Both the position numbers and the translations under genes were made by a program. This document shows, in pieces, positions 17,691 to 43,519 of a stretch of 64,000 nucleotides of DNA. Each line of letters starts with the position of its first letter. The stretch's first letter is position 1. A model generated the notes under the pieces. The model did no database searches. It saw nothing but the letters and a program-made list of their open reading frames with translations, and had not been told where the DNA came from. Source of the stretch: a virus. The DNA lies in the IMG/VR virus record IMGVR_UViG_647000328_000003, positions 8,078-72,077 of that record; one strand, written 5' to 3'.

Positions 17691-17750
17691 GACGAGACCT
17701 TCTTCCTAGCAGGGGATGGTTGAAGACCAGCTGGTGATGCGGCTGGTCCC

Positions 17751-17783
17751 GGCCCAGGCGCCTGATACGCGCCTGGGCCTTTT
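17751..17783 (+). terminator. Rho-independent terminator on + strand
   Basis: ggcccaggcgc-N7-gcgcctgggcc followed by TTTT. Confidence 0.65.
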
Positions 17784-18678
17784 GCGTGCCCGGGGAGATG
17801 ACCCGGGGTACTGCGAGCACCGGGTGATGAGACCGGCGTGGGATGAGACTAGATCGCGCCAAGAGGCGCTTCGGTTTTGGTGATCCGGAACCGGCTACGT
17901 CTCTCTTTGCAACCTTGACGGTTCCAACATGTTGGAAACCGCAGGTCAGGGGTTAAGTCCACTCTTTGGGGAAGTCGCTGACCTCCTAGTTTTTCACTTT
18001 GTCGGTGCCTGGATGGTTGTGTAATTGGATTTCGCTATGTAGCTTCATCGGCCCCCAAATCTGGCCGGAAGCAGATGGGCACCGCCGACCGGGAGCCACC
18101 TCAACGGCGCACTCCGAAGATCGGTACGCAGAAGAGGCTAGACCCGGCCACCCCGCCTCCCGCCTGAACTAAAGGTGAAGTAGACACCCCAACCTGCACC
18201 CAACCTGCTCATCCGAGCGCGAGCCGAAGGACACTTCGCAGGTCAGAGCGTGATCCCTCCGGACCGGCGCGCCCCTGACCTCGCACAACCCCTCAACACG
18301 AGGCTCATTTGTCGCCAGAAACGTTGCTTGCGCCTCCGTGAAACACCACAACCCAGGCACGACCGAGTTGGCCGGAAACCCCCACCACAACCCCCATCCG
18401 TTCGGCACGAGCCGACCATCACACACAACCGCAACCCCGTGCGGAGGAGGTGTGTATGAGGCGGCCGACCGCTGAGAGGAACCTAGACGGGGCGGTCGAG
18501 GGCGGCGTCGGAAACCGGCACCTCGCTTTTCTGGCGAAACGGACCCAAGGCCAGGTGGCAGGTAGGCTCGCAGCGAACTTGGGGTGCATCTAACGGGGCT
18601 TAGTGGTGCATAGAGCCCATGGATTCCCATTGCTGTACTATTCGGCCACTTGTCTGAAATTGGTTGGTGCCCTGTGGG

Positions 18679-19296: not shown

Positions 19297-19404
19297 CGAT
19301 TCCTCCAACTTGGATATGCAAGTGGCGTTGGTGGAGACGCTAGCTTGCTCGCCTTGGGTATGCAAGTAGTGCGACTGGGGCGATGCGGGCGTAGTTTGCG
19401 CCTC

Positions 19405-19878: not shown

Positions 19879-20655
19879 GTGATGTCACCAAACCCCGCAC
19901 ACGAGCACCCCTTCAAGAGGGTGGCCAACGAACTGCGCACCGAGATCCTCCGAGGCGACCTCGCGCCCGGCGACCAGCTCTCGTCCGAGAACGAGCTGAA
20001 GGATCGCTTCGGCGTGACCCGGACCACGGTCCGTAAGGGCATCGCTCTGCTGCGGGCCGAAGGGCTCATCACCTCGAAGCAGGGCAAGGGGGCGTTCGTT
20101 CGTGAGCGCCCGCACGTCAATCTGAGGCAGACGGGCAGCATCTACCGCGCCCGTCGAGGTACGGGGAAGTCGAACTTCAACGCGGAAGCTGAAGCCCAGG
20201 GGCAGAAGCCGAAGCAGGTCATCCGGGAAGTGGTCGAGACGGCTGCCCCCGAGCGCGTCGCTCAACTGCTTGGGATCGAAACCGGGGCCCCGGTCGTGGC
20301 GCGGCGGTTCCTGTTCGTCACGGACGACACCCCGATGCAGCTGGTCGACTGCTACTACGACGCAAAGGTCGCTGGCGGCACGCGACTTGCGGAAGCCCGA
20401 CTGATCAAGGGTGGTGCCAACGCCTACATCGAAGACCCGGATGGGCCGATCGGTCGCCGCATCGTTCAGTTCATCGAGGACCTCGACGTTCGGATGCCGT
20501 ACCCGCACGAGGTGGATCAACTCGACATCCCCGACGGTGTACCGGTGGCCAGGGTGCTGCGCACGGCCTACGACTCGGCGGGCGACGCCATCGAGGTGCT
20601 CGATTCCATCGTCCCCTGCGATCGGCACGCCTTCCGCTACGTGATCGATGTGTAG
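19879..20655 (+). CDS. GntR/HutC-family repressor with UTRA domain (KorSA-like)
   Basis: LRTEILRGDLAPGDQLSSENELKDRFGVTRTTVRKGI..QGKGAFVR; C-terminal PVARVLRTAYD UTRA; precedes the tra operon. Confidence 0.9.
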   Translation: MMSPNPAHEHPFKRVANELRTEILRGDLAPGDQLSSENELKDRFGVTRTTVRKGIALLRAEGLITSKQGKGAFVRERPHVNLRQTGSIYRARRGTGKSNFNAEAEAQGQKPKQVIREVVETAAPERVAQLLGIETGAPVVARRFLFVTDDTPMQLVDCYYDAKVAGGTRLAEARLIKGGANAYIEDPDGPIGRRIVQFIEDLDVRMPYPHEVDQLDIPDGVPVARVLRTAYDSAGDAIEVLDSIVPCDRHAFRYVIDV

Positions 20656-20676
20656 CCCCGCATCGTCCGTACCGCC

Positions 20677-20709
20677 AACGCCCCCACCTTCCCGGTGGGG
20701 GCGTTTTTT
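20677..20709 (+). terminator. Rho-independent terminator
   Basis: aacgcccccacc / ggtgggggcgtt plus T6. Confidence 0.85.
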
Positions 20710-20852
20710 GCTCCCGGCGACTCGCTCGAAGGCAAAACAGTCGCGGCACTTGCATAGCCAAGTTGGTTCGGCCTATCGTCAGGGGTGTCGCCACTTGCAT
20801 AGCCAAGTGGAACTGACTCCCCCTGCCCCTGCCCGAATCCGGAGGACCGCAC

Positions 20853-21104
20853 ATGTCTCCCCGCGACGCACTCGATGCAGTGCTCGACGACCTTCAGGAC
20901 TCCCTCACCGTCCCTGAGGTGGCCGCTCTCATCGGCGTCCACCCGGCGACGGTCTACCGAGCGGTCAAGACCGGCCGCATTCGCTCGACCAGCCGGGGGA
21001 GCGGGCAGATTCGCCGCACCCTCACCACCATCCCCCGCACGGCTGTCGTCGAGTTCCTCGCGACGCCCAACGGCCCCGCCTCCCCGTCGGAGGTGGCGGC
21101 ATGA
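20853..21104 (+). CDS. Excisionase-like (HTH_17/AlpA) DNA-binding protein
   Basis: LTVPEVAALIGVHPATVYRAVKTGRI; GGAGG RBS. Confidence 0.85.
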   Translation: MSPRDALDAVLDDLQDSLTVPEVAALIGVHPATVYRAVKTGRIRSTSRGSGQIRRTLTTIPRTAVVEFLATPNGPASPSEVAA

Positions 21105-21268
21105 CCCCGCCGATCACCCCGCCGTCGGCCCCGATGTCTGCTGCGGACCGCGAGGCCCACGAGATGGCGTCGTACCGTCGCCGTCCGGCTGTCGTCTCCC
21201 AGGGGTCGGTCACCCTCCCCGCCGAGTCTCCGGCTCGCCGCCGGCTGATCGCTCTGCGGCGTCTCTGA
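21101..21268 (+). CDS. Small hypothetical protein
   Basis: ATGA overlap; GGAGG RBS; TGATG coupling downstream. Confidence 0.55.
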   Translation: MTPPITPPSAPMSAADREAHEMASYRRRPAVVSQGSVTLPAESPARRRLIALRRL

Positions 21269-21402
21269 TGGCCGCGGCCGAGCAGCCCCGCGAGAACACG
21301 ATCGTCGCGGAGCCTGCGACTCCGGATGCGTGCCGCCGTGACTACCAGGCGGCTGCTGATGTTCGGGCCCAGATGGCCCGGCAGGAAGCCCGCCGCAAGT
21401 AG
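21268..21402 (+). CDS. Small hypothetical protein
   Basis: TGATG coupling. Confidence 0.5.
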   Translation: MAAAEQPRENTIVAEPATPDACRRDYQAAADVRAQMARQEARRK

Positions 21403-21510
21403 CACCCCACTGACTGCCGCGCCCCGTCGGCGACATCCCCCGGCCGGCCGGGCGCGGCTCTCCACCCCCACCTCTTCTTCACTCCACTCCACCACTCGAA
21501 GGGCACCCCC

Positions 21511-21810
21511 ATGTCTCCGTACCTCATGTCCACGACTGACCTGGCTGTTCTGTCCGACGCGGACACAGCGACCGTTTCCTCTCTCGCGGCCCGCCGACGT
21601 GCGTCGATCAGCGTCGCTCAGGCCGAGCAGCTGGCCGCCGACCGGCTGGCGGTCAGTCTCCTGTCGGAGTTCCGTGCCGCGTGGTCGGTGGGTGACCGCG
21701 ACCAGATGTCGGCGGTGATGCTCGCCGCGATCGACCTCGACCAGACCAGCCCGGGTTCGCCGCGGCTGATGGACGAGATCCGAGGCCTGAACGCTCAGGC
21801 CGCCGCCTGA
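21511..21810 (+). CDS. Hypothetical protein
   Basis: GAAGGG RBS; helical. Confidence 0.7.
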   Translation: MSPYLMSTTDLAVLSDADTATVSSLAARRRASISVAQAEQLAADRLAVSLLSEFRAAWSVGDRDQMSAVMLAAIDLDQTSPGSPRLMDEIRGLNAQAAA

Positions 21811-21910
21811 GCCCTGCCCCATCCGCTCTGGAGTACGGCGAGAGGCTGCCCGATCGGCTCGGGCCCAGAGCACTCCCCGCACCACCTCGACCACCCCAAG
21901 GAGCACTGCC

Positions 21911-22138
21911 ATGCCCGGATCCACCCCTGCTGAGCGTCAGGCCGCCGCCAACGTGATGCTCACCGTGATCGACAGCGGCACCCTCACCGCCCCGGGTCGC
22001 ATGACGGACGACGACATCGCCCGCCAGCTCGACGCTGGCCGTCAGCTCCGCGAGGCGGCCGACGGGGACGAGTCCCGGATCGCCAACGCGCTCGCCGACG
22101 TTCGAGAGGCCGCCCTCGCCGCCGAGACCGCCCGGTAG
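21911..22138 (+). CDS. Hypothetical protein
   Basis: AAGGGAG RBS. Confidence 0.7.
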   Translation: MPGSTPAERQAAANVMLTVIDSGTLTAPGRMTDDDIARQLDAGRQLREAADGDESRIANALADVREAALAAETAR

Positions 22139-22168
22139 TCACCAACCCCCACCCGAACGGAGAACGTC

Positions 22169-22417
22169 ATGGGCTTGTTCAGCAGGATCAGCGACACCAG
22201 GGCCGAGGTCACCGGTCACGCCGCACTCACCAAGGACATCCGCGAGGCCGTCAAGGGCGGTGACGAGGAGGCCGCAGCCACGTTCCGGACCGGCACCCTC
22301 TCGGCGGCGCTGACCACCAAGGGCTGCAACGCCCGCGGCCAGGAGGTCGCCGCCTACGTCGAGCGGGTCGTTGCCGCGGACGGGGACAGTCGCCGCGCCG
22401 GCTGGCTGAACCGCTGA
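22169..22417 (+). CDS. Hypothetical protein
   Basis: GGAG RBS. Confidence 0.7.
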   Translation: MGLFSRISDTRAEVTGHAALTKDIREAVKGGDEEAAATFRTGTLSAALTTKGCNARGQEVAAYVERVVAADGDSRRAGWLNR

Positions 22418-22518
22418 CCCACCGCCCCGGATCACGGCGTGAGGCTGCCGGATCGACTCCGGCCCGGGGCGCCACCGACCGACCTCCACTCACCACCGAG
22501 CCCAGGAAGGGCCGAACC

Positions 22519-22713
22519 GTGAAAAACCTGCTCTGGATCCTGCTCACCCTCGCACTGCTGGTCCTGTTCCCGGGACTGGCCCAGACGGTCGCCACCACCG
22601 TCGCCGCGACCGTGCAGTTCATCGCCGCCCAGCCGATCCTGCTGGGCTTCGGGCTCGGCGTCGCGACCCTCACCCACCTCCGCGGCAAGAACCCCGCCAC
22701 CGCCCGCATCTGA
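22519..22713 (+). CDS. Small 2-TM membrane protein (Spd-like)
   Basis: Two hydrophobic segments; located in the tra operon. Confidence 0.7.
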   Translation: MKNLLWILLTLALLVLFPGLAQTVATTVAATVQFIAAQPILLGFGLGVATLTHLRGKNPATARI

Positions 22714-22730
22714 CCCGAAAGGGCACCGCC

Positions 22731-23105
22731 ATGACCACGCAGACCGCCTGGCCCGAGAACGTCATCGCCCGCTACCTCACCCTCGTCGGTGCCACCGTCG
22801 ACCTCACCCACCGGAACGAAGCCGAGGACGGCAAGAAGAAGGCGACCCGCGCTGTCTGCACCGGGTGCAGGGCCGTCACCGTCCAGACCTGGGCCGACAG
22901 CTATCCGAACTACCGCCGACCCGGCGTGACCGAGTTCCAGAACCAGGACAAGGGCGACCGTGCCGCTCGCGCCTGGGCGCAGAAGCACGCTGAGACCTGC
23001 CGGGCCCTTGCCGCGCCCACCGTCCCCGCGACCGCGCCCGAGCCGCAGGACGAGCCCGAGCCGAAGCGCCGCCTCTGGCTCCCCGCCCGGCGCAAGAACG
23101 CCTAG
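22731..23105 (+). CDS. Hypothetical protein (CxxC...HAETC)
   Basis: GAAAGG RBS; high GC3. Confidence 0.7.
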   Translation: MTTQTAWPENVIARYLTLVGATVDLTHRNEAEDGKKKATRAVCTGCRAVTVQTWADSYPNYRRPGVTEFQNQDKGDRAARAWAQKHAETCRALAAPTVPATAPEPQDEPEPKRRLWLPARRKNA

Positions 23106-23161
23106 TCGCACCACAGAGCCGAACCCACTCGCCCCCACCCGTCCCGGAAGGACACACCGTC

Positions 23162-24517
23162 ATGAGTGCCGACTACCGTTCCTGGGAGGAGCGTGAGGCC
23201 ACCGCCAAGAAGACCCGCGCCGAGGCGGCACGCATCGCCGCCGAAGCAGAAGCCGCCCGCACCGCTGGCGCCCAGGCCGCCGAAGCCGGGGCTGCGAAGA
23301 CCGCCACCGACCTCCTCGCCGAACAGGTCAAGCAGGCCGGGCTGAAGAAGAAGCTCGAAGCCGTCACCGAAGCCGCCAAGGACGAGAAGGCCGAACTCAA
23401 GGCCAGGCGCCGCGAGGCCAGCGCCGACAACGGCACCGCGTTCAAGCTCATCGTCAACGTCGCCGTCGTCCTCGGGCTCCTCGCCGCACTCCCCGCCCAG
23501 CTGTCGTACTTCCTCACCCTCCACAAGGAAGGCGAGAAGAATCCCAGCACCGCGTGGCTTCTCGGCCCGATCCCGTTCTTCCTGGAACTCCTCGCCTGGG
23601 TCGGTGTCCTCGGCACCCGGTGGGCGCACCGCAAGGGCCTGCCCCGGTGGCCGTTCTGGATCCTGACCGCCGCACTCGCCTCCGTCGCCGGGTACATCAA
23701 CCTGGCGCACGGCACCGACGAGTACGGCATCGTCGCCGGTGTCGCCCTGGCCGCCACCTCGGTCATCGGCCCGGTCCTTGCGGAGGTCCGGGACTTCCTC
23801 GAAGGCAGGGCCGCCGCCGACACCCGGAGCCTGGAGCAGCGGGCCGCCGCGAAGGCCGCAGCGAAGAAGCGGGCACGGGATCAGCGGGCGCTCGCGAAGG
23901 TCCACGCAACCGAGGACGAGCGGCGCAGGACGCTGTTCCCTCAGGAGTTCGCCGAGTACGAGCGGATCATCGTCGCGCACCCCACCGGAGCCATCACCCG
24001 GGAGGCCGCGTGGCAGCAGGCGTGGGACAACATCCACCTCCTGCCGCTCGCTACAACAGCGGACACGCTCGCCGGCCGCGAGGAAGCCCGCGCTGCGATC
24101 AACTCGGTTCTGTCGAACGTCGACCGCACCCCCGAGAGCGAAGCGGTCGACCGGCTCCTCGCCGAGATCTTTCGGCCCGACGGCGGTGACAGCGGACCCT
24201 CCCAGAAGCCCACAGAGGGCGGACCGAAGGATGGTGCAGGGGGAGGGTCGCAGGCCCGCCGCCCGGCCGACTCGAAGGGGCCTGGAGCCCTTGGGCGTAA
24301 AGGGAAGCAGGCATCCGGGCGCACCTCCGGAAAGACCCCGCTGAAGCCGCTCCAGCCGGATCACCTTGACGCGGTCCGCAAGCTCGCCGACGCCCTCGGC
24401 GGCCTCGAACGGCTGTCTGCCCGCAAGGTCCGCGAAGTCATCGGCGGCGGATCCAACGAGTACGCCGTCCGCCTTCGCGACGCAGTCCGCGCCGAAACAC
24501 AGGGAGACACCCAGTGA
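23162..24517 (+). CDS. SpdB2-like multi-pass membrane spread protein
   Basis: N-terminal coiled coil, four hydrophobic helices, C-terminal HTH-like LSARKVREVIGGGSNEYAVRLRD; stop overlaps traB start. Confidence 0.7.
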   Translation: MSADYRSWEEREATAKKTRAEAARIAAEAEAARTAGAQAAEAGAAKTATDLLAEQVKQAGLKKKLEAVTEAAKDEKAELKARRREASADNGTAFKLIVNVAVVLGLLAALPAQLSYFLTLHKEGEKNPSTAWLLGPIPFFLELLAWVGVLGTRWAHRKGLPRWPFWILTAALASVAGYINLAHGTDEYGIVAGVALAATSVIGPVLAEVRDFLEGRAAADTRSLEQRAAAKAAAKKRARDQRALAKVHATEDERRRTLFPQEFAEYERIIVAHPTGAITREAAWQQAWDNIHLLPLATTADTLAGREEARAAINSVLSNVDRTPESEAVDRLLAEIFRPDGGDSGPSQKPTEGGPKDGAGGGSQARRPADSKGPGALGRKGKQASGRTSGKTPLKPLQPDHLDAVRKLADALGGLERLSARKVREVIGGGSNEYAVRLRDAVRAETQGDTQ

Positions 24518-26727
24518 GCGTCGAGACCACCCCCGCCAGCACACCCGACCCGGAGTGGGAGCGGCTCATCGCCAGCCTTGCCGACAAGGCCGACAGCCCC
24601 CTCCTCCAGAAGACCGCGGATGTTCCCCACAACCGGCCGGACCTCCTCGGCGACATGCCCCTCACTCCGGAGTGGGCGCGCACCTCCGCCGGATGGCGAA
24701 CCCGCGCCGAGGTCGGGAAGCTCAACTCCACCCGGGCGTTCCGCCGGTGGGTGCGCCGGCAGTCCACCGAGCACGGGCACGGCGCCCAGGTCTTCCGCGG
24801 GATGTGCCGCACGTTCCTGTGGGTGCAGGGCACCGAAGGCGTCCAGGTCGCCACCGCACGGCATGAAGTGCGGCAGGCTCAGGACCGCTACAAAAGCGCG
24901 AAGTGGGGTCACGGCCTGCGGCTCATCCCCGGCAACGAGAAGGACAAGCTGCGCGCTGAGATGGATAAGGCGTTCGCCGGGTCCGTCACCGCGATGAGCA
25001 AGTACAGGTCTGCCCAGCGGGACGCCCGGACGCGGCGCGGGGCGCGAGGCGCCCTTGTCGCCGCTGCGATCGCCGTGCCGGAAGGGGCCGGGATCTATCT
25101 GATCGGCGGCGCTGGCGGTGTCATCGCGACCGGCTCCGCGCTCCTCGCGTTCGCCCTGATCGGTCGACGCACCAACGGCGGCGAGGTGTACACCGACCGG
25201 GACGCGAAGATCGGCAACGGCGACCGGATGACCGACGACATGATCGACCGGGCGTTCCGCGACGCCGGCATCATCCGCGGCGATCAGGCCGTCGTGTTCC
25301 GGTCCCCGGTCATCCAGGACGGGCGGGCGTGGCTCGCACACATCGAGGTCACCGGCGGCGTCGAAGTCGCAGACGTCCAGAAGAAATCCGGGCCCCTCGC
25401 CTCCGCGCTCGGCGTCCCCCGCCACCAGATGGACATCCGCCACGAAGGCCGCGAAGACCACCTCAGCCTGTGGGTCAGCATGACCGACCCGTTCGGCCGG
25501 ACCGTCCCCAACCCGCTGATCGGCACCACCGACAAGGTCAACGCCTGGCGTGACGGGCTCCCATTGGGCTTCGACAAGCGCGGCAGCATCGTCCTCGCCA
25601 CCATCTCCGACTACTCGCTGCTCGTCGGCGGTACCACCCGGTCCGGGAAGGGCATGGCCGTCGCGAACATTCTCGTCGGCGCCATGCTCGACCCTCGCAT
25701 CCGAGTCAGGCTGTTCGACGGGAAGGGCACCGGCGAGTACGTCGGCCTTGCGCCCGCCCTCGACACGTTCGTCCGCCGCAACCCCGAACGGCTCCTCCAG
25801 TTCCTCAAGGTGCTGGTCGGCGAACTGGAACGCCGCACCGAGATCCTCGTCGACCTGGGGGTGTCCAAGGCCACCGAGGAACTCCTGGAGCAGCTCGGCG
25901 GCATCGAGCTCGTCATCGTCGACGAGCTCGCCACCTACACCGTCAAGGGCGGCCTCAACGGCCAGCACGCCGAAGAGATCGTCGAACTCCTCGCCCAGAT
26001 CGCCGCCGTCGGTGCCGCCGTCGGGATTGTCCTCGTCCTCGCCACCCAGTACCCGAAGGTCGACGTCGTCCCCTCCCGGCTCCGCGGCAACTGTGCGGCC
26101 CGGTGGGCGATGCGAGTGGACTCCACGACCGCGTCGAACGTCATCCTCGGCGACGGTGCAGCCGACGACGGCTACAACGCCCGCAAGATCGAAAACAGCA
26201 AGTCGACCCGCGGGCGCGGCATGCTCACCACCCCCGACACCGGATTCATCGACTCCCGCAGCCTCTTCGTCGACGTCGAGAACGGCGACCTCGGGAAGGC
26301 CGCCAAAGCAGGCATGGCGCTGCGCCAGGCCATAAGCCGGCTGCCCCTGCACTGCCCGGACCCGATCGAAGACCAGCTCAAGGCAGACACCGGAATCAGC
26401 ATGGTCGCCGGCGGACCCACCGGAAAGGGCACCGCAGTCCAGGCCGAGGCGGAGCCCACGATCCTCGACCACATCGTCAAGGCCGTCACCGCCACCGGCC
26501 GCGGCGAAGCGACCCGCGGCGAGGTCTTCGCCCACCTGGCCACCGTCGACGAGCGATACGAGCGGGGCGACACGGAAAGCGACGCCCAGTACGGGTCGCG
26601 GGCCGGGAAGCTCCTGTCCGCCGACCTGGACGCCGAAGAGGTCGAGCTGAAGGCCGTGAAGGTGTCGACCGCGGACGGCGGGGAGGGTCGCGGGTTCAAG
26701 CTCGCCGCCCTCCACGCCGCCCTATAG
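24514..26727 (+). CDS. traB: FtsK/SpoIIIE-family conjugative DNA translocase (Streptomyces TraB)
   Basis: Two TM helices, Walker A GGTTRSGKG, Walker B LVIVDELA, LVLATQYP, C-terminal helical domain. Confidence 0.9.
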   Translation: MSVETTPASTPDPEWERLIASLADKADSPLLQKTADVPHNRPDLLGDMPLTPEWARTSAGWRTRAEVGKLNSTRAFRRWVRRQSTEHGHGAQVFRGMCRTFLWVQGTEGVQVATARHEVRQAQDRYKSAKWGHGLRLIPGNEKDKLRAEMDKAFAGSVTAMSKYRSAQRDARTRRGARGALVAAAIAVPEGAGIYLIGGAGGVIATGSALLAFALIGRRTNGGEVYTDRDAKIGNGDRMTDDMIDRAFRDAGIIRGDQAVVFRSPVIQDGRAWLAHIEVTGGVEVADVQKKSGPLASALGVPRHQMDIRHEGREDHLSLWVSMTDPFGRTVPNPLIGTTDKVNAWRDGLPLGFDKRGSIVLATISDYSLLVGGTTRSGKGMAVANILVGAMLDPRIRVRLFDGKGTGEYVGLAPALDTFVRRNPERLLQFLKVLVGELERRTEILVDLGVSKATEELLEQLGGIELVIVDELATYTVKGGLNGQHAEEIVELLAQIAAVGAAVGIVLVLATQYPKVDVVPSRLRGNCAARWAMRVDSTTASNVILGDGAADDGYNARKIENSKSTRGRGMLTTPDTGFIDSRSLFVDVENGDLGKAAKAGMALRQAISRLPLHCPDPIEDQLKADTGISMVAGGPTGKGTAVQAEAEPTILDHIVKAVTATGRGEATRGEVFAHLATVDERYERGDTESDAQYGSRAGKLLSADLDAEEVELKAVKVSTADGGEGRGFKLAALHAAL

Positions 26728-26738
26728 ATCACATTTGC

Positions 26739-26922
26739 ACCCTGCCCCGACCCTGCCCGGCCGTTCATCACCGCAGGTCAGCCCATCGGCCACCCTGCCC
26801 CGACCCTGCCCCGCGCGGGCAGGGTCGCCCCGGCCCGGAACCGCACCCAGCTCGTTCAGGCAGGGTGTGGGCAGGGTCGCCACCTGCGGAAACGCCACCG
26901 CTGGACACGGTTCAGGCAGGGT
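26739..26922. repeat. clt-like locus: eight ACCCTGCC 8-mers (4 forward, 4 reverse)
   Basis: Forward at 26739, 26750, 26792, 26803; reverse at 26818, 26859, 26870, 26915; three pairs spaced 11 bp; directly downstream of traB. Confidence 0.85.
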
Positions 26923-26957
26923 CCAACGCCCCCGTACTCACTTCGAAGGAGCCCCTC

Positions 26958-27440
26958 ATGCAGCTGCCCGAGCAGCCCGTCGCCGGGCAGCCCGACACCA
27001 CCATCCGCCGCAACGCCGACCAGCTCGTGGTCGCCGTCGACGAAGCCCTCTTCGCCGGCCAGGTCACCTCGTACCGCGACAACACCCCGCTCCCCGCGGT
27101 CGGCCCCAACCCGCCCGTCCAGCAGCCCGGCCCGCCCCCGATGTCGCAGTGGGCGATCGACGCGAGCGGGGTCCTGAAGGCCGTGTCCGTGGCGTCCCTG
27201 CCGATCGGCGGCGCCCTGTGGATCGTCGGCCAGATCGAACCGTGGGCCCTCGGCATCATCCTCGGCTCGCCAGCCGTCGCAGCCCTCGCCGTCGCCCGGC
27301 TGGTCGCGAAGGTCAAGGACGCCAACCAGGCCGCCCCGCAGCCGGTTGTGCAGCACTTCCACGGCACCGTCCACCACGACGAGCGCACCGTCACCAGCAC
27401 CACCCGCGGCGTCATCGCGAAGACCCAGAACCGGAACTAA
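26958..27440 (+). CDS. Spd-like membrane protein
   Basis: GAAGGAG RBS; two TM helices; C-terminal VVQHFHGTVHHDERTV..TRG. Confidence 0.7.
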   Translation: MQLPEQPVAGQPDTTIRRNADQLVVAVDEALFAGQVTSYRDNTPLPAVGPNPPVQQPGPPPMSQWAIDASGVLKAVSVASLPIGGALWIVGQIEPWALGIILGSPAVAALAVARLVAKVKDANQAAPQPVVQHFHGTVHHDERTVTSTTRGVIAKTQNRN

Positions 27441-27518
27441 CCCAATTTGATCACTTCGCCCACCAGGCGACCCACCCGCCGATAACCTCCGATCGCACAC
27501 ACCATCCCTGGGGGGACC

Positions 27519-28031
27519 ATGAGTACCGAAACACCGCCGCCAGTCGAGCCACCCGTCGCCCACGAAGCCCCGCCCATGCCCGCCGAACCCCCGGTCGTAG
27601 CACCGAAGAAGCGGCCCTCACCGCTTCTTGCCGGGATCCTCGGCCTGGCCGTAGGTGCCGGCGCCGTCGGTGCAGCCTGGGCGATCACCGCAAACCAGGA
27701 GCCGCCCGCACCAGCCACGTTCACCCTCACCGGCGCCTTCGCCCTCACCGATGGCGCAACCCCAGACGGCGACGGCTGCATCGGCACCGAGGGCTACGAC
27801 GACATCGCTGAAGGAACGTCCGTCACCGTCTACGACGGGGCCGGGAAAGTGGCCGCCACCGGGAATCTCGGCAAGTCCAAGTACACGGGCGGTGCCTGCG
27901 CTTTCGAGGTCAGCGTCCCGGACGTGCCCAAGGGGGAGAAGTTCTACCAGGTCGAGGTGTCCCACCGCGGGAAGGTCCAGCTGACCGGAAAGGAAGCTGA
28001 AGCCGGAAAGTTGTCCGTGACCCTCGGCTGA
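27519..28031 (+). CDS. Membrane-anchored extracytoplasmic protein
   Basis: Pro-rich N-terminus, one TM helix, Cys pair in beta-rich domain. Confidence 0.75.
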   Translation: MSTETPPPVEPPVAHEAPPMPAEPPVVAPKKRPSPLLAGILGLAVGAGAVGAAWAITANQEPPAPATFTLTGAFALTDGATPDGDGCIGTEGYDDIAEGTSVTVYDGAGKVAATGNLGKSKYTGGACAFEVSVPDVPKGEKFYQVEVSHRGKVQLTGKEAEAGKLSVTLG

Positions 28032-28040
28032 CCTCTCGAC

Positions 28041-28082
28041 GCGCAACAGGCCCCGGAGCGAGCAGACCGGGGCCTGTTGCGC
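28041..28082 (+). terminator. Long stem-loop ending the tra region
   Basis: gcgcaacaggccccgg / ccggggcctgttgcgc, perfect 16-bp arms. Confidence 0.8.
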
Positions 28083-32006: not shown

Positions 32007-32750
32007 ATGACCGATACCCCGATGACCCCAGAGTACGAACAGCGGATCCGGTCGCACGTTGCCGAGATGAGCAACTACTCGCTCGGGAACCTGTTCGCCC
32101 GCGACCTCCTGGCCGAGGTCGACCGACTGCGGGCCGAGATGTACCGGTGGCGCGAGCGCACCGAGGAGGCCGAGACCAGCGAGGCCCAGTTGAAGGGCCG
32201 GGTGCGCGGGCTGCGGGCGCAGGTCGATGAGCTGGAGGAGCAGGGCCGCTTCCTGGAGCGGAATACCCTGCCCGACCTGAATCGTCAGATCGAGCACCAC
32301 CAGGGCGGCAAGGCCCGGTGGCGGAAGCGTGCGGAGGCCGCCGAGGCCCGGGTTGCCGAGCTGGAGGCCGCCGGGTCCCGCCTGGCCGCTGTGGAGCGCC
32401 TGGCCGAGGAAGCCGACGACAAGTGCAACTCCACCATCGACACCGACCTGCTCCTCGACGCTCTCGGGCTGAACGCCGCTCCGATCGATGAGGCGGTCGA
32501 GATGGCCGAGGCGGAGGCCGAGCTGGAGGTCATGCGCCGCGAGCACCCCGCCCCGTGCCGAGTCCCCGACTCCCCGGACTGCACCTGCCCGGACGAGCTG
32601 TCGCTGCCCCTGTGCGGCAAGACGGTCGCGGTCGACGGCACCGTCTACGCCCCGTGCGCCCGCCACGCAGGGCACAGCGCGGCGTACTGCCGAGACTCCG
32701 CCCGCAACCACTACTTCCTGACTGCCGACCTGCACGGGTCCACCCCGTGA
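32007..32750 (+). CDS. Coiled-coil hypothetical protein with C-terminal Cys/His motif
   Basis: GAAGGA RBS; heptad region. Confidence 0.7.
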   Translation: MTDTPMTPEYEQRIRSHVAEMSNYSLGNLFARDLLAEVDRLRAEMYRWRERTEEAETSEAQLKGRVRGLRAQVDELEEQGRFLERNTLPDLNRQIEHHQGGKARWRKRAEAAEARVAELEAAGSRLAAVERLAEEADDKCNSTIDTDLLLDALGLNAAPIDEAVEMAEAEAELEVMRREHPAPCRVPDSPDCTCPDELSLPLCGKTVAVDGTVYAPCARHAGHSAAYCRDSARNHYFLTADLHGSTP

Positions 32751-35067: not shown

Positions 35068-35235
35068 ATGCCAGGCCGACGACACGCCGGTTTCAAGAGC
35101 CGAGCCCAATGGCGCTACTTCTTCGCCAACCCCAGACTTCGCCGCTACGCCCGCCAGAAAGCCCATGCCACCAAGGGTGGAAAGATCACCCGATACCGGC
35201 GACTCCCCGCACGGCGCGGCGTCCGCCGCCGCTAG
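35068..35235 (+). CDS. Very basic 55-aa protein
   Basis: GGAGG RBS; 16 Arg + 4 Lys, no Asp/Glu; stop overlaps the portal stop. Confidence 0.7.
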   Translation: MPGRRHAGFKSRAQWRYFFANPRLRRYARQKAHATKGGKITRYRRLPARRGVRRR

Positions 35236-36929
35236 GCCGCCAACGCAGGCTGAGAGCCCCAGCCCGCCGGCTCCTCCTCCTCCGGGTCCTCCGACTGGCC
35301 CTCGTCGAAGCCCGGCTCGACCTCGTCGTCAGGCTCCTCCTCGTTCGGCTCCCCGCCGCGGGTGTTGAACGGATCCCCGGATGGCGTCTGCGCCTTGTCG
35401 TCGCGGATGCGCCGCACCTCCGTCAACACTTCCGCGTCATCCCAGGACGGCTCTCGCATCTTTACCTTCATGAACGTGCTGATTGCCCCAGCCGCGTCCA
35501 GCAGCGAAAGGGTGCGCGCGGTGGCCTCCGGGTCCGGTTGCACCGCCTGCGGCCAACTCGCGGTCAGCTCCGCCGCCGGATCCACACCCTTCGCCCGGCA
35601 GTGCGTCACATCCACCCACATCAGGGTCGTCAGATGCTCCAGCAGCGCCGGCCGCTGGTACAGGATCTTCAGACCGCGGGTCGTCAGCGACTCCTCCTTG
35701 CGGGCCGCCACTTCCGTCGCCGTCACCGCCACCGAGCCTTCCTCGCCATACGACTGGGCCGAATAGCCGGCCGACGCCAGGATCTGACGGCGCAGAGCCT
35801 TCGTGGTCCGCTCATGCTCCTCGACTCGGATCTTGAACTGAAGCTCGGTGATTGACTCGCTAATCGGTTTCTGGGCATCACCCAGAAACCCGCTCACCGC
35901 AACCAGCAGTTCCCTGTCGAAGTCGAATGAGGAACCGTTCCCCGGCCCATTGGTGTCGAGCATCTCCTGCGGCACCACCACCCTGGCCTTGCCCAGCCGT
36001 AGATCGCGCATCCAAGACGTCCAGCCCTCATCGAGCGCATCCATCATCGGCTCGATGCCCGCATAGTCGGAGCGGCCCAACGGGGCCGTGTCCGGCACTC
36101 CGTCCCATACTCGGTTCGGGAGGACGTTCGGCATGTGCGTGATCAGCAGCCGGTCCACGCCCGTCGCCTGCCGGCCCTGGCTGTCGGTGCGGCTCGCCAG
36201 GAACTCTGTCTCGTGATGGTCCGAGAACTCCATTAGCATGCCGAGCGTCGCATGGTCGCCCTTGTAGACCCCGTAATCGATAGCCCCCGGGGTGTGGTAC
36301 TCCAGCAGCCGCCACACCCCCCCGGCGTCGTCCAGCGGCTCCAGCTCCCGCCACACCGTCGCCGCCGCCAGCATCCCCCAACGCCACTCCGGCACCACTG
36401 CGTTCGCCTGGATCACATCCGACCATGGGCGGGGGCGCAGCGACGTGTCCCAGACGGCCCGCAGGTACACGTTCGACAACCCGGCGGCCAGCTCGGCGGC
36501 TTCCCGGAACTTCGCGTGCCCCCGGTCGTCGAGGTACCGGCCGATCTGCGCCTGCGTGGTCTCCGCCGTGGCCTTGTCTGTCGAGTCGAGGTCGACCGTC
36601 ACTTGTGGGACCTCAGCCCACAGGAGGTTCGCGGACATCTCCGCAATGTCCCCGCCGATCGGCACATGCAGTTTCGCCGCCTGCTGCCCCGGTGACGGGT
36701 CCTGCCCCCAGAACATCCTGAGCTCGTCGCCGCCCACCGCGCGCCGCTTGTCGACGTCGAAGAACGCGCGGGCCACACCATTCCGCGTGTAGGCCGCCGG
36801 CCCGCCGTACACCTGCGCCAGATGCCCGGTGTCTCCGGCGTACCAGGCCCGCCACATGTCCATGTCGGCGTGCGGAATCTCCAGACGAGGGGGCGGCCAC
36901 GGGGTGTTCCCAGACGGAGGCAGCGGCAT
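35232..36929 (-). CDS. Portal protein (SPP1 gp6-like)
   Basis: WRAWYAG..LHVPIGGDIAEMSANLLW..GRSDYAGIEPMMDALDE; acidic tail; follows terL. Confidence 0.9.
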   Translation of the reverse strand: MPLPPSGNTPWPPPRLEIPHADMDMWRAWYAGDTGHLAQVYGGPAAYTRNGVARAFFDVDKRRAVGGDELRMFWGQDPSPGQQAAKLHVPIGGDIAEMSANLLWAEVPQVTVDLDSTDKATAETTQAQIGRYLDDRGHAKFREAAELAAGLSNVYLRAVWDTSLRPRPWSDVIQANAVVPEWRWGMLAAATVWRELEPLDDAGGVWRLLEYHTPGAIDYGVYKGDHATLGMLMEFSDHHETEFLASRTDSQGRQATGVDRLLITHMPNVLPNRVWDGVPDTAPLGRSDYAGIEPMMDALDEGWTSWMRDLRLGKARVVVPQEMLDTNGPGNGSSFDFDRELLVAVSGFLGDAQKPISESITELQFKIRVEEHERTTKALRRQILASAGYSAQSYGEEGSVAVTATEVAARKEESLTTRGLKILYQRPALLEHLTTLMWVDVTHCRAKGVDPAAELTASWPQAVQPDPEATARTLSLLDAAGAISTFMKVKMREPSWDDAEVLTEVRRIRDDKAQTPSGDPFNTRGGEPNEEEPDDEVEPGFDEGQSEDPEEEEPAGWGSQPALAA

Positions 36930-36944
36930 GACGGTTCCTTTCAG

Positions 36945-38195
36945 TCAGGCGGCCAGGGCGAGCTGGCGCTGCCACAGGGCACGAGTAGTGAAGATCGCGT
37001 AGCGGAGGGCGTCGACACCATGGTCAGCAACCTTGATCGGGCGGTCCTCGCCCTTCTCGGCCGCCTTGTCATCCCAGGCGTAGCCGGGCATCTCGCCGAT
37101 CAGCGCCTTGCACGAGGAGTGGACGACGAGCTTGCCTGCCGAGAGGAGGCTGGCCATGGTGCGGATGCCGTCCAGCACGGCGTTGTTCGCCGGGGTCGGG
37201 GTGAGCCTGTCGCGCCGCAACTGGGCAGAGAACGAAGCCGCCGAAGGGTCCACCGTCACGAACTGAGGGCGGACTGGGCCGATGCCAGCGACGTTCGACA
37301 GCCAACCCCGCATGCGCTCCGAGTACTCGATGTCGGTGAGCTGGCGCCGCTGCTGGCGGCCGTCGTACCGCCACTCGGAAGCCGCGTACAGCCGACGGTC
37401 TCGGCCCAGGCCGAGGAGTGTGGCGTGGAACGGGTTCGTCTGGCCGTAGTCGACGCCAACGCTGATCCACTTGGCGATCTCGGGCAGCGTGTCGACGACG
37501 TGCTTCTCTTCGTCCCACATGTCGAAGATGGACCCTTCGGCGGCGATCCACTCGCCGAGGACGAAGCGGCGGTACCAGAGGCCCACGAACTCGTTTTTGA
37601 TCGAGTTCTTGTAGTCGTCGCCCAGAGACGGGTTGTCGTCGAGCACGTAGTGCCAGTACCGGATGCCTAGTTCGTCACGGCGGTCGATGAAGTCCCGCTT
37701 TAGCCAATGGGCCGGCGACCCGGGATTGGTGGAGGCAAAGAGCTTCGCCCCGGGCACGCTCATGCGGCCCAGCAACTGTGTCCAGAACTCTTGCGGTACG
37801 AGCGTCGCCTCGTCGACGAGGGCGCCTGCGCAGGTCATTCCGCGAAGGCGCTCCTCCGCCCTGCTGTCATTGGCCCCGATGACCCGGACCTGCCGACCCA
37901 GGATGGTCGCGGTCGGCGCACCCCGCGTGTAGTGCACGTGCTGCGCCAGCGGGCCGAAGAGGTTCGGGTCCTGGAGAGGGATGAAGACGTTCGACGCCGC
38001 GGTGTTGGTGGTCTTCGCGATGACCGCGAGCTCGCCGCCGGAAGGCGCCGTTGCCACGTACATGATCCACCGCAGCAGCGTGGAGATGGTCTTGCCAGCA
38101 CGGATTGACCCGGAAGCGATGTTGATTCGTGCGTTGCTGTTCGCAACGAAGTCCAACTGCTTCCGGGACATTCCGAGATCGGCGGCGTTCAGCAC
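36945..38195 (-). CDS. terL: Terminase large subunit
   Basis: Walker A GSIRAGKT, LRGMTCAGALVDEAT, STNPGSP, nuclease VGVDYG...DHGVDALRY; GTG start at 38195 overlapping the HNH stop. Confidence 0.93.
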   Translation of the reverse strand: MLNAADLGMSRKQLDFVANSNARINIASGSIRAGKTISTLLRWIMYVATAPSGGELAVIAKTTNTAASNVFIPLQDPNLFGPLAQHVHYTRGAPTATILGRQVRVIGANDSRAEERLRGMTCAGALVDEATLVPQEFWTQLLGRMSVPGAKLFASTNPGSPAHWLKRDFIDRRDELGIRYWHYVLDDNPSLGDDYKNSIKNEFVGLWYRRFVLGEWIAAEGSIFDMWDEEKHVVDTLPEIAKWISVGVDYGQTNPFHATLLGLGRDRRLYAASEWRYDGRQQRRQLTDIEYSERMRGWLSNVAGIGPVRPQFVTVDPSAASFSAQLRRDRLTPTPANNAVLDGIRTMASLLSAGKLVVHSSCKALIGEMPGYAWDDKAAEKGEDRPIKVADHGVDALRYAIFTTRALWQRQLALAA

Positions 38196-39064
38196 AGCAG
38201 GCCCAGAAGGAGACGGAACCGCGTACCACATCGAGCATGCTTCGTCAGATTGCAGTGACCGCACGCCATGGCCAGGTTCCACCAGTGGTCAGTGCCGCCC
38301 TTACTGAGAGGGAACTGGTGGTCAATCTGCATCGCAGCGGTACGGCCTCCGCAGTACGCGCAGGGATCAGTCGCGATCGCTGCTCGATAGGCGGTCGATA
38401 TGGCCTTGTCGAATTTGGTCATGCCTCGCGCTGCTTGGTACCTGCGTCGCGCCGTCTTCGCCTTGAACGGAATCGGGTCGTCCTGGTAGTCCTGGCGCTG
38501 CCGATGCAACCGACACAGGCTGCGGTACTGAGCGTGCTTGCTGCACCCGTCGGCAGCACATTCTCCGCCCTTCGCGGTCTTCAGGGGCTGTTCGATGGGC
38601 GTGCCCGTCAGAACTCGACGTCGGTGGAAATGGCACATCCCGACCGCCGAATACGGTCGCTCGCAGCCCTCCACCGCGCATGGCCGGATGACCTTCCGGG
38701 ACAGGACCACGTGGGGGTCTCCGTGCTGACGCCAGCGCGCGTAGTGCTTCGTGCACCAACCGCGCTTGCGGGCGGGCTCGTCGCAATCTTCGATCGCACA
38801 CGCTTGGCCAAGGTTCGCGACCTTGAGAGGGGCCGCCATGGGGAGGCCGTTGCGCTGCCGCTGCCAGTGAAGCGAGCAGAGCCCCTTGCCTGCAACGCTG
38901 CGCTCGCAATCCTCGGCGGAACAGGTGAGGCCAGCCCGTTCCTGCCGCAGCAGACCAGCGGTCAGGGGGAGGCCCTTCCTCTGCCGATAGAGGTGGGTGT
39001 CGCAGAGCCCGTGACCCTTGTGCGGTCGTTCGCATCCGGGCACGTCGCAGGTACGCTTGGTCAT
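38189..39064 (-). CDS. HNH endonuclease with five tandem Cys/His Zn-binding repeats
   Basis: Repeats CxxxxCxxxxxxxxxCxxH; C-terminal CAYCG...IDHQFPLSKGGTDHWWNLAMACGHCNLTK; GAGGAG RBS. Confidence 0.9.
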   Translation of the reverse strand: MTKRTCDVPGCERPHKGHGLCDTHLYRQRKGLPLTAGLLRQERAGLTCSAEDCERSVAGKGLCSLHWQRQRNGLPMAAPLKVANLGQACAIEDCDEPARKRGWCTKHYARWRQHGDPHVVLSRKVIRPCAVEGCERPYSAVGMCHFHRRRVLTGTPIEQPLKTAKGGECAADGCSKHAQYRSLCRLHRQRQDYQDDPIPFKAKTARRRYQAARGMTKFDKAISTAYRAAIATDPCAYCGGRTAAMQIDHQFPLSKGGTDHWWNLAMACGHCNLTKHARCGTRFRLLLGLLC

Positions 39065-39189
39065 GTCGGCACTCCTCGAAAGTGTCGGCCGTGCCCCCGG
39101 ACGGTTGCCCCCGTCGCGGGGGTCCTGTATGTAGTTTGACCTGCCAATTCTACCAATTTGGCGACGTGTTTGAGTGCTCGTCAGCCTTG

Positions 39190-39738
39190 TCACAGCTCGA
39201 CCTCGGGAGGCGTTTCGGCGCCCTCGTTGACGATGGCGCTGATGCCCTGTGCAAGCTTCCCAAGCATCGACTTGGCCTCGTCGGCGCCGCCGGTGGCCTG
39301 CTCGGGGGGTGCGAGCTTGAGGCTGCGGTCGATGGCGGCGCCGGCGGCCATGATGAGGATGCGCCGCTCGGCGTGGGGGGCTTCGAGGAAGGTCTCGGAG
39401 TTGAAGCTGTTCTCCTTGCCGCCGAAGGCGTACACGGTGGTCGGCTCGTGGATCTTCTGGAGCGACTCCTCGGCGATGTCGGTGAGTTTTTCGGCGAGGA
39501 GAGACCGGCGTTCGGCGAGGTCGGCGACGCGCGCCACTGTTGCTGCCTGGATGGCGGACCGGTCGAAGGTGAGGCCGAGGTGTTCGGCGGTGCGGGAGAC
39601 GCAGCCGGTGGCTATGCCCATCTCGCGGGCGATGACGTTGCGGCCTTTCCCTTCGGCGTGGAGTTCCCGGAGCTCATCCCACCGGTCGCGGGCCATCGTC
39701 CCGCGGGGCTTCGGCGGCTCCTGCTTGTCGTCGGCCAT
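39190..39738 (-). CDS. terS: Terminase small subunit (HTH)
   Basis: HTH GKGRNVIAREMGIATGCVSR; helical oligomerisation region; GGAGGG RBS; upstream of terL. Confidence 0.75.
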   Translation of the reverse strand: MADDKQEPPKPRGTMARDRWDELRELHAEGKGRNVIAREMGIATGCVSRTAEHLGLTFDRSAIQAATVARVADLAERRSLLAEKLTDIAEESLQKIHEPTTVYAFGGKENSFNSETFLEAPHAERRILIMAAGAAIDRSLKLAPPEQATGGADEAKSMLGKLAQGISAIVNEGAETPPEVEL

Positions 39739-40616
39739 CAGGCCCTCCGTTCGTTTCGTGCGGCCCGGCGCAGCAGGGCGGGTAGTCGTGTGCCGTCGAC
39801 GGGCCAGGTGGGGGAGTAGGGGATAGTCCAGCAGCGGCAGTGCGGGTGCAGCGGGGGCCCCAGCGGGGCGGTGGCGAACACAGTGCGCCGCGGGTCGAGG
39901 GAGAGGGCGGCGGGGAACCGGCGGCCGGCAATGACGCTGCGGCCGGCGTAGGCGGCGCAGGCGGGGCACGCCCCGGGCTCAGCGACCCACAGGAGCCGGG
40001 TGGTGGGCCCGATGGCGCGTGCGACCGCTGCGGCGGCGTATGCGGCGGCGCTGGTGACGGCGACAGCGGCGTGGCGGGCGATGCGGGTGACGGCACGCCT
40101 GGCCCTGTTGAACACCCCTGCGACACCCGCGAATCCGAGGGCGGTGACGCTCGCCGCTGTCAGGAGCGCCAGAGCGCGGTGGTGCTCGTCCTCGACGGCG
40201 GCAGGAACAGCGTCGGCGGCGGCCGTGGCCTCCGGGCCGATGACGGGCTGCACCGGCGGGACGGGCTCTCCACTCGTCGCTGCGGCGAGCGCGGAGGCCT
40301 GCTTGGCGCTGAGCTGTGCGGAGCTGAAAGCGGCGATGCGGATGGTGTCCGCGGCCAGTTTGCCCTTGCCGCGAAAGGCGTCAGCGAGCAGTCGCTTGAT
40401 GGCTGCGATGAGTCGGTCGAGGGCGCTGGGCGGCGGGAGGGCCTGCCGGCTGGTGGCGTGGAGCCACTGCCGGGTGGCCGTCTTCTGAGCGGCTGTGAGC
40501 GCGGCGGCGAGGGGCTGTGCGGCGTCGCTGGCGGCTTGCTGCTCAATGCGGCGCAGTGCGGCGGGGAGTTGCCGTGCCGTGTCGGCTATCCGGTTGCTGC
40601 TGACCACCCTCACCAC
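39738..40616 (-). CDS. Mu gpF/SPP1 gp7-like minor head protein
   Basis: WVAEPGACPAC...PPLHPHCRC motif; TGATG coupling to terS. Confidence 0.85.
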   Translation of the reverse strand: MVRVVSSNRIADTARQLPAALRRIEQQAASDAAQPLAAALTAAQKTATRQWLHATSRQALPPPSALDRLIAAIKRLLADAFRGKGKLAADTIRIAAFSSAQLSAKQASALAAATSGEPVPPVQPVIGPEATAAADAVPAAVEDEHHRALALLTAASVTALGFAGVAGVFNRARRAVTRIARHAAVAVTSAAAYAAAAVARAIGPTTRLLWVAEPGACPACAAYAGRSVIAGRRFPAALSLDPRRTVFATAPLGPPLHPHCRCWTIPYSPTWPVDGTRLPALLRRAARNERRA

Positions 40617-43516: not shown

Positions 43517-43519
43517 CCG

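Follow-up and report, generated by a model that had tools for sequence, protein, structure and literature searches.

Can a tailed phage of Streptomyces carry, as a part of its own genome, the double-stranded DNA (dsDNA) transfer apparatus of a plasmid, and what would it use it for? The question is raised by a provirus of the IMG/VR database (record IMGVR_UViG_647000328_000003; 78,895 bp, classed there as a provirus and estimated by CheckV to be 100% complete). Positions 8078-72077 of this record form the 64,000-nucleotide window analysed here, to which all positions refer unless another locus is named. A sequence-only reading of the window had described a complete Streptomyces-type conjugation module within a full tailed-phage genome and had labelled the element a phage-plasmid. 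The present analysis supports the presence of a pSVH1-type transfer and spread module, comprising a repressor, operators, SpdB2, TraB and repeats, inside a complete-looking temperate tailed phage. The block at 19.4-28.1 kb can be regarded, with moderate confidence, as a native and selectively maintained module of a temperate Streptomyces siphophage lineage, in which a repressor-controlled operon of the pSVH1 type would transfer dsDNA and allow spread independently of the capsid. Judging from its genes, the virus probably has a second spreading route for which no capsid is needed; we further infer that the two routes may be in use, or that hosts lacking the phage receptor could be entered.

TraB, SpdB2 and the downstream repeats

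The centre of the block consists of two adjacent genes, spdB2 and traB (Table 1), and both identifications had been made correctly from the sequence alone. The TraB protein shares 32% identity with TraB of the Streptomyces venezuelae plasmid pSVH1 over residues 43-624 (E 2e-59), its profile matches FtsK motor structures (E 1.8e-17) and its structural model matches the FtsK motor by Foldseek (E 7e-16, TM 0.66). A hydrophobic segment has been located at residues 179-212, the Walker B motif is kept as VDE, and the last 98 residues have been modelled as a helix-strand-helix-helix-strand-strand unit with a pLDDT of 88.8. The traB start overlaps the spdB2 stop (GTGA), an arrangement that amounts to translational coupling. 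Pairwise BLAST gave only a marginal match between the window SpdB2 and that of pSVH1 (E 0.031), and the link needed a profile; built from the window protein and 13 relatives, this profile matched pSVH1 SpdB2 with a probability of 99.5% and an E value of 5.8e-23 (hhalign). No Pfam DUF2637 match was obtained at E 0.01, and in tblastn searches the protein matches DUF2637-annotated proteins located beside traB on Streptomyces plasmids. In the account of Thoma et al. (2015; PMC4447253), SpdB2 consists of an N-terminal coiled coil, transmembrane (TM) helices and a C-terminal domain; the 451-residue protein has this architecture, and in 14 of 14 related loci a protein of this architecture ends at the traB start or at most about 20 nt from it. 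When compared to close relatives, traB has a ratio of non-synonymous to synonymous substitution rates (dN/dS) of 0.19-0.29 and spdB2 one of about 0.28, values of roughly 0.2-0.3 which indicate purifying selection on both genes.

The clt-like repeat locus of the earlier reading has been recognised as an array directly 3' of traB. The 8-mer ACCCTGCC occurs 12 times in the whole window, against 3.9 copies expected by chance, and eight of these twelve copies fall within the 184 bp of the array. They surround a conserved inverted pair, CAGGTCA...ACCTGCG, at about 26770-26785 and 26880-26895, and the same array layout has been detected at the same offsets in three relatives (G001, G002 and L026). 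L026 is a locus of Streptomyces parvus JCM 4069, and its TraB is 88% identical to that of the window. The distribution of the repeats over two strands was rejected as an unusual trait, since the region after pSVH1 traB has the same layout with GACCCGGA. As an observation in its own right, the inverted pair CAGGTCA...TGACCTGC is present in every traB-downstream array examined, including that of pSVH1 (L025), besides the lineage-specific 8-mers.

Co-variation of TraB and its repeats

Comparison of the window TraB with those of L002-L007, L026-L034, L025, L037 and L038 has revealed a three-part mosaic, composed of an N-domain (residues 1-225), a motor and a C-terminal domain, with recombination break-points near residues 225 and 620. 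The phage-linked copies examined have N-domains that are 53-83% identical to one another, against 22-33% to those of plasmid TraBs; the domain is conserved in phage-linked copies while the motor, the C-terminus and the phage backbone all vary. The motors are of two types, GKG and a pSVH1-like GKS, and the C-terminal domain is swapped independently of both N-domain and motor. Across 15 loci, the 8-mer follows the C-terminal domain and not the motor. The loci in which ACCCTGCC is used (the window, G001, G002, L026, L028 and L030) have related TraB C-termini, and in L030 the same 8-mer occurs with a motor that is 33% identical and a C-terminus that is 60% identical. In G003 and G005, the motors are 85-89% identical, the C-termini about 40% identical and the repeats of the CGTGATG type, while other C-termini accompany still other 8-mers.

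This tracking of the C-terminus by the 8-mer supports a working TraB-clt pair, and it supports recognition of the ACCCTGCC array by the C-terminal domain as a candidate pairing. The TraB mosaics of the phages constitute what appears to be a natural version of the domain-swap logic by which the specificity of TraB was reportedly assigned to the C-terminus in the 2011 work of Vogelmann et al. A literature search on the pSVH1 8-mer returned only unrelated papers. For plasmid systems, Thoma et al. (2015; PMC4447253) state that clt is recognised by TraB C-termini and that the 8-bp repeats within clt regions serve as recognition sequences of the cognate TraB.

Position of the module in related phages

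The earlier description of a tra block placed between a replication module and a head, tail and lysis module has held, the surrounding phage modules being real. A TraB search of IMG/VR yielded six loci in five proviruses, with two of the loci being copies of one sequence. Among the relatives, G001 and G002 resemble the window element both in their tra genes (84-89% identical in amino acids) and throughout the head-tail module (60-95%), with mosaic early regions, while in G003 and G004 a related traB lies beside different TerL, portal and capsid families. A scan of genomes, with one genome per species, returned nine Streptomyces loci (L026-L034). Phage genes, of at least three further kinds, surround eight of them; the ninth (L033), whose TraB N-domain is only 32% identical, was left out. 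The phage-type N-domain has been found in 4-5 of 401 sampled Streptomyces species genomes (about 1%).

A search with the portal protein provided thirty relatives, 15 of them with a full 10-kb flank. The syntenic slot contains a TraB-like gene in 10 of these 15; in two others an SpdB2 homologue precedes a gene of about 700 codons, which makes 12 with a Tra-type gene, and in three nothing lies within reach. The position of the module is kept across relatives with four or more head and packaging types. The genes of about 700 codons after SpdB2 (L059:18789-20951 and L074:18566-20650, both on the minus strand) are not recognised by the TraB profile; a canonical Walker A motif, GAMGAGKT, is present in that of L059 and none was matched in that of L074. 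They may represent a third, unrelated translocase type in the same slot.

No recombinase has been found in or beside the tra block, and no credible attachment (att)-like direct repeats flank it, with seven matches of 13-16 nt detected against about three expected. These results and the shared position do not bear out the possibility that the tra block is a separate element inside a defective prophage, and the genomic context supports the view that it belongs to the phage. A megablast search with 19-29 kb gave no hit in the collection of phages and, on Streptomyces plasmids, no more than short patches.

Regulatory part of the operon

A KorSA-like repressor of the GntR-UTRA type had been proposed at the start of the block, and Pfam matches to both domains (Table 1) and homology to TraR have confirmed it: the protein is 32% identical to TraR of pSVH1 over its full length (E 6e-32), and a 99% identical copy is present in the provirus G004. 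The terminator predicted after the repressor gene is likewise present. As for the operator-bearing promoter, the operators have been verified as two 20-nt copies between the repressor terminator and the start of the tra operon, while the promoter itself is putative, no sigma-70 consensus having been found upstream of the operon. Homology and the position of the repeats suggest that the GntR protein represses at these operators. Related operator-like copies occur in a divergent promoter region that lies between a gene encoding a GIY-YIG-GntR fusion and the PNPOx gene, the latter being probably co-transcribed with the repressor gene. The GIY-YIG-GntR gene is divergent from the PNPOx-repressor-tra side, and the operator-like repeats are common to both.

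The first gene of the operon encodes an HTH_17 protein, in accordance with the Xis-like helix-turn-helix (HTH) protein of the earlier reading. It is 96% identical in G004 and can be considered a candidate directionality factor or activator. Five small open reading frames (ORFs) follow, for which neither Pfam nor PHROG matches were obtained. The suggestion that Spd-like membrane genes precede spdB2 applies to one of them, 22519-22713 (64 residues, two TM helices), the products of the others being predicted as soluble. Small ORFs of 82 and 64 residues are 72-90% identical in G001, G002, G004, L026 and L034. Downstream of the repeats, homologues of the 160-residue membrane protein have been detected in most related proviruses, making it a conserved marker, and none of the 170-residue protein in the relatives examined. 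Two further frames in this part were rejected: a long ORF at 26735-27811, judged non-coding by the GC content at third codon positions (GC3), and 26912-27415 on the minus strand, an antisense shadow of 26958-27440.

Relation to characterised systems

The closest characterised system is the tra-spd locus of pSVH1 (TraR, SpdB3-Spd79-SpdB2, TraB and clt), of which the window module is, by sequence comparison, a homologous but rearranged phage copy. TraB, TraR and SpdB2 are homologous in the two systems, and the gene order is the same, with a repressor, small genes, spdB2, traB, repeats and small downstream genes, an order which also matches the tra regions of pZL1 and a Kitasatospora plasmid. The arrays correspond as well, with 8-mers past the traB stop on both strands around the shared TGACCTGC motif. 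Nonetheless, the carrier is an integrated tailed phage, as opposed to a 12.6-kb plasmid; the repressor gene is co-oriented and separated by a terminator, whereas it is divergent in pSVH1; the operon opens with an HTH_17 gene, unlike that of pSVH1; and the TraB N-domain belongs to a type encountered in this analysis among phage-linked copies only. Walker A is GKG in place of the GKS of pSVH1, and the 8-mer is ACCCTGCC in place of GACCCGGA. In the plasmid system, deletion of traB dramatically reduces transfer and abolishes pock formation, and spreading requires spdB2 (Thoma et al., 2015; PMC4447253).

The same Walker A variant occurs in a group of plasmids comprising pZL1 of Streptomyces sp. 14R-10 and those of Kitasatospora sp. 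NBC_01246 and Streptomyces sp. JCM17656. As in the window, these have DUF2637/SpdB2 genes upstream, a GntR regulator and repeat arrays after traB, but they differ in their plasmid context, in their 8-mers and in their N-domains, which are 22-23% identical in pZL1 and the Kitasatospora plasmid. Homologues of SpdB2 have also been noted in the phages phiC31 and VWB, where an aid to the spread of phage DNA was suggested (Thoma et al., 2015; PMC4447253). There, a Spd-type protein is found in a temperate Streptomyces phage; in the window, SpdB2 comes together with TraB, clt and a TraR-type repressor. A tblastn search with the window SpdB2 found nothing in 50,697 phage records, Streptomyces phages included.

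The plasmid-phage pZL12 (phage ZL12; GQ919031) is, according to the accounts available in PMC4487206 and PMC3583192, a published case of a Streptomyces phage capable of conjugation as well (Zhong et al., 2010, J Bacteriol 192:3747). As a precedent for tra genes in a phage it stands at the level of function and not of homology. Its packaging genes, too, are neighboured by genes for a GntR regulator, a membrane protein and an FtsK-like Tra; however, pZL12.71c and pZL12.73c have no significant similarity to the window TraB and SpdB2 (E 0.15 and 4.1), values on which pZL12 was rejected as a homologue of these two proteins. A relationship was seen for the GntR proteins alone (28% identity, E 4e-12). 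Furthermore, pZL12 is a 90-kb circular plasmid with ParAB, whereas the window element is integrated and no Par genes have been found in it.

Integrative and conjugative elements of actinomycetes (AICEs) resemble the window element in their chromosomal integration, integrase (Int), Rep-like gene, KorSA-type GntR repressor, TraB-family translocase, Spd proteins and dsDNA transfer logic (PMC2440964; PMC3218068). A comparison with AICEs separates the two on size, content and insertion site. The window element measures about 60-70 kb and holds full virion and lysis genes, in contrast to AICEs of about 9-24 kb without structural genes, and it does not lie beside a tRNA gene, whereas AICEs are usually found in tRNA genes and bounded by att repeats. 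Its integrase is located about 26 kb from the tra genes, at the lysogeny switch. Instead of the compact, att-bounded combination of Int, Rep and Tra genes that characterises an AICE, these genes are spread over at least about 60 kb of phage.

Proposed role and alternative explanations

In the lysogen, the TraR/KorSA-like GntR repressor would keep the operon off by binding to the paired operators, following kil-kor logic. Once repression is lifted, excision of the prophage as a circle by the phage integrase may be aided by the Xis-like HTH protein. Membrane-anchored TraB hexamers, coupled to SpdB2 and the small membrane proteins, would then bind the ACCCTGCC array through their C-terminal winged helix and pump circular phage dsDNA into the neighbouring mycelium and across septal cross-walls within the mycelium, and the phage integrase would integrate the transferred DNA in the recipient. 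The gain would lie in capsid-independent spread and establishment in a multicellular, multinucleate host, with virion production still available.

Several points weigh against this proposal. Expression, binding of the repressor to its operators, coupling to excision and DNA transfer are all predictions from sequence. The Walker A motif of TraB is G-x4-G-K-G, without the usual Ser/Thr of GK[ST]; it is conserved in the window copy, G001, G002, G003, G005, L026-L029 and L033 and also occurs in the plasmid TraBs of pZL1, the Kitasatospora plasmid and the JCM17656 plasmid, and to our knowledge no TraB of the GKG subtype is among those that have been tested. The winged-helix assignment of the C-terminal domain is based on topology and on weak Foldseek matches (best E 0.065); against the PDB, no match reached E <= 0.001, and the FtsK gamma domain was absent among the 50 matches listed. 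The Xis-like gene is missing from G001 and G002, for which reason the coupling to excision cannot be general. Regarding the sampling, the genome search that returned the phage-linked loci used N-terminal peptide patterns, so that the association between phages and the N-domain is partly built in. TraB and SpdB2 occur in none of 50,697 GenBank phage records, which are mostly of isolated virions, and the identity of the portal to those in these records does not exceed 41%; hence, particles of this lineage have yet to be observed. Direct repeats joining the left end of the record to its right part were sought without a credible match (the best being 12 nt), and neither att sites nor a right boundary can be defined. 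The sequencing runs listed for the region are DNA contig sets with partial shares, with no RNA run among them.

The role in DNA transfer could be narrower than proposed. It is conceivable, although rather unlikely, that the module serves only intramycelial movement, with TraB and the Spd proteins moving phage DNA across septa after infection or induction, without mating, and thereby either enlarging the productive zone or converting a multinucleate colony to lysogeny. The translational coupling of spdB2 to traB, the conservation of several small membrane proteins and a phage-specific TraB N-domain, which fits specialisation for a phage-related task, are in agreement with this. Plasmids, however, use the same TraB-clt pair for intermycelial transfer, and the operon is under its own repressor and not visibly wired into the lytic cascade. 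No sequence feature separates the two uses, mating between mycelia and spreading within one. A benefit to the lysogen appears less probable still: the block would then be cargo (a moron) that mobilises the host chromosome in an Hfr-like manner from an integrated clt, excludes plasmids, AICEs or phages, or serves the lysogen in some other way. Its organisation as an autonomous transcription unit with its own regulator, between a terminator and a hairpin, is typical of morons; the GC content dips at both flanks, the family is placed by PHROGs in the category 'moron, auxiliary metabolic gene and host takeover', and clt resides in the chromosome for as long as the prophage does. Yet, with the Tra allele being exchanged, the slot and its function persist in four or more phage backbones, as would be expected more of a core phage function, and clt co-evolves with TraB inside the phage.

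The remaining alternatives concern the nature of the element. The phage-plasmid label is not upheld by the record: the element is an integrated provirus with a probable integrase next to a host gene, no match to ParB_N or ParA-type (AAA_31) domains was found, and neither end repeats nor terminal inverted repeats are present. It is accordingly very improbable that the element also lives as a pZL12-like plasmid, using a Rep-like gene and the adjacent low-GC region, with tra serving the plasmid state. The Rep-like gene does lie beside the tra block and is 56% identical in G004, and the tra layout described above for pZL12 is comparable; but the gene is weak or absent in G001 and G002, both of which keep the tra genes, and the Tra proteins of pZL12 are unrelated in sequence. 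The Rep-like gene is situated in a leftward block facing the tra block, a position which does not imply membership of the module. About 0.9 kb of lower-GC, ORF-poor DNA has been observed beside it at 17700-18650, and the two together may possibly constitute a second replicon besides the DnaB-containing early operon. Least credible of all is an accidental association, in which an AICE or its remnant would have been inserted into a possibly defective prophage. The Int+Rep+Tra rule of Ghinet et al. (2011; PMC3218068) would flag the region as an AICE, and the nearest relatives of TraB and SpdB2 outside proviruses are plasmid-borne. Against this stand the lack of a recombinase and of flanking repeats beyond chance reported above, the absence of a tRNA gene from the window and from the whole record, the use of the same position by many related proviruses, and CheckV completeness values of 88-100% across the records, with phage modules that are all open and recognisable. 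A native transfer module of the phage is thus the explanation retained here.

The phage genome around the module

The GC content of the window is 63-75%, as in the high-GC DNA of actinomycetes, and gene calls were made by codon-position GC because raw ORF lists are uninformative at this GC content. The features identified are compiled in Table 1. Genes for an integrase and repressor switch, replication, terminase, portal, capsid, tail and endolysin characterise the element as a temperate siphovirus-type member of the Caudoviricetes. The divergence of the left-end integrase is such that it escapes detection with PF00589, and its assignment is a weak one. The portal and large terminase genes mark the start of the virion module, 8.5 kb downstream of traB; profile searches identified neither a small terminase nor a holin. 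With its low portal identity to GenBank phages, the lineage is one without a cultured member.

Table 1. Positions of the features of the transfer module and of the surrounding phage genome (window coordinates; aa, amino acids).
Feature	Position	Strand	Remarks
Host short-chain dehydrogenase (SDR) gene	left end of record		adh_short_C2, E 8e-55
Probable tyrosine integrase, 427 aa	about 200 bp from host SDR gene		only SAM-like N-domain above Pfam cut-off
cI-like HTH, cro-like HTH and HTH_17 genes	next after integrase
Replication/early module	left third of window		DUF3799/PDDEXK nuclease, AAA_24 ATPase, Bro-N protein, two C5 cytosine methylases, DnaB helicase
Rep-like winged-helix gene, 261 aa	16296-17081	-	PHROG replication-initiator families; phrog_4707, E 3e-11
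GIY-YIG-GntR fusion gene, 205 aa	18679-19296	-	GIY-YIG, E 1.6e-5; GntR winged helix, E 3.4e-17; without effector domain
Divergent promoter region	19297-19404		related operator-like copies at 19309-19323 and 19353-19367
PNPOx/split-barrel flavin-enzyme gene, 139 aa	19405-19824	+	PNPOx_N, E 5.6e-16; directly upstream of repressor gene
TraR/KorSA-like repressor, 258 aa	19879-20655	+	GntR, E 7.5e-19; UTRA, E 5.6e-18
Intrinsic terminator	20677-20712	+	12-bp stem and 5-nt loop (20677-20705), T-run behind
Two 20-nt operator-like quasi-palindromes	20744-20763, 20789-20808	+	core ACTTGCATAGCCAAGT; direct copies, 95% identical, 45 nt apart
HTH_17 (excisionase/MerR-like) gene, 83 aa	20853-21104	+	first of operon; Pfam E 5.3e-10; GGAGGA 7 nt before ATG
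Five small ORFs	21511-21810, 21911-22138, 22169-22417, 22519-22713, 22731-23105	+	GC3 0.83-0.94
SpdB2 homologue, 451 aa	23162-24517	+	N-terminal coiled coil, 3-4 TM helices, C-terminal domain
TraB, FtsK-like dsDNA translocase, 737 aa	24514-26727	+	N-domain with membrane segment, motor, putative C-terminal winged-helix domain
clt-like locus	26739-26922		8 exact ACCCTGCC in 184 bp, 4 on + and 4 on -; starts 12 bases past traB stop
160-aa protein, 2 TM helices	26958-27440	+	GC3 0.96; immediately downstream of traB/clt
170-aa protein, N-terminal TM anchor (1 TM)	27519-28031	+	GC3 0.80
Perfect 16-bp inverted repeat hairpin	28041-28082	+	closes unit; putative terminator, no T-run behind
Portal	35232-36929	-	phrog_533, E 1e-95
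Large terminase (TerL)	36945-38282	-	phrog_2, E 6e-48
HNH endonuclease	after portal/TerL region	-
Scaffold-like, major head, connector, major tail, Dit and minor tail proteins	after packaging genes	+	
2087-aa ORF	46329-52592		tape-measure position; plus strand
Amidase_2 endolysin, then GDPD protein	after tail module

Some further observations concern the phage rather than the module. The packaging genes (a 259-residue ORF, HNH, TerL and portal; 35232-39969, minus strand) diverge from the head-tail operon (40000-57514, plus strand) with a shared intergenic region, an arrangement that recurs in G001 and G002. The window encodes two GDPD-domain proteins whose C-terminal parts are related to each other, one in the tail module (55739-57514) and the other after the lysin (61227-63341); pZL12 likewise encodes a GDPD protein near its tail genes (pZL12.40c). 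To the right of the window, past the lysis genes, a second tyrosine recombinase (PF00589, E 1.8e-13) is located at L045:2794-3897 (G000 74871-75974) and is followed by a secreted nuclease-like protein. A 48-nt near-repeat between G000 4445-4492 (L044) and window positions 32544-32591 was rejected as an att site, being a shared coding motif: the two copies, 90% identical, encode PCRVP(E/D)SPDCTCP in two otherwise unrelated small phage proteins.

Implications for Streptomyces and its phages

Transfer by virions and transfer by conjugation are treated as two modes in a review of plasmid mobility (PMC12282955). They are usually seen as alternative lifestyles, with pZL12 being the one Streptomyces plasmid-phage known for both. 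What the present locus adds to pZL12 is a different and well-understood system, that of pSVH1 (TraR, SpdB2, TraB and clt), built into integrated prophages. A literature search, with subscription journals outside its scope, did not yield any account of TraB/clt modules of the pSVH1 type in integrated prophages, and the Samy prophage paper (PMC11302927) makes no mention of FtsK or TraB. The combination is recurrent, as the share of about 1% of sampled Streptomyces species genomes with a phage-type TraB and the retention of a Tra gene in the slot of most phage relatives attest, and within phages the pump co-evolves with its DNA site. In the natural domain swaps, a table of TraB C-terminal domains and candidate 8-mers is at hand, from which rules of DNA recognition may be approached.

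As a tentative interpretation, held with less assurance than the nativeness of the module itself, a widespread and uncultured lineage of temperate Streptomyces phages may have made a plasmid dsDNA pump a core viral function, an analogue of the movement proteins of plant viruses which could also permit entry without a receptor. If this is true, one infection or excision event would colonise a whole multinucleate mycelium via septa and hyphae, the line between viruses and conjugative elements would be blurred, and host range and the evasion of defences would depend on two independent entry routes. Should the module work, pipelines for finding AICEs and prophage finders would count the same elements twice, resistance based on the receptor would not fully protect Streptomyces, and lysogeny could spread through a colony without lysis.

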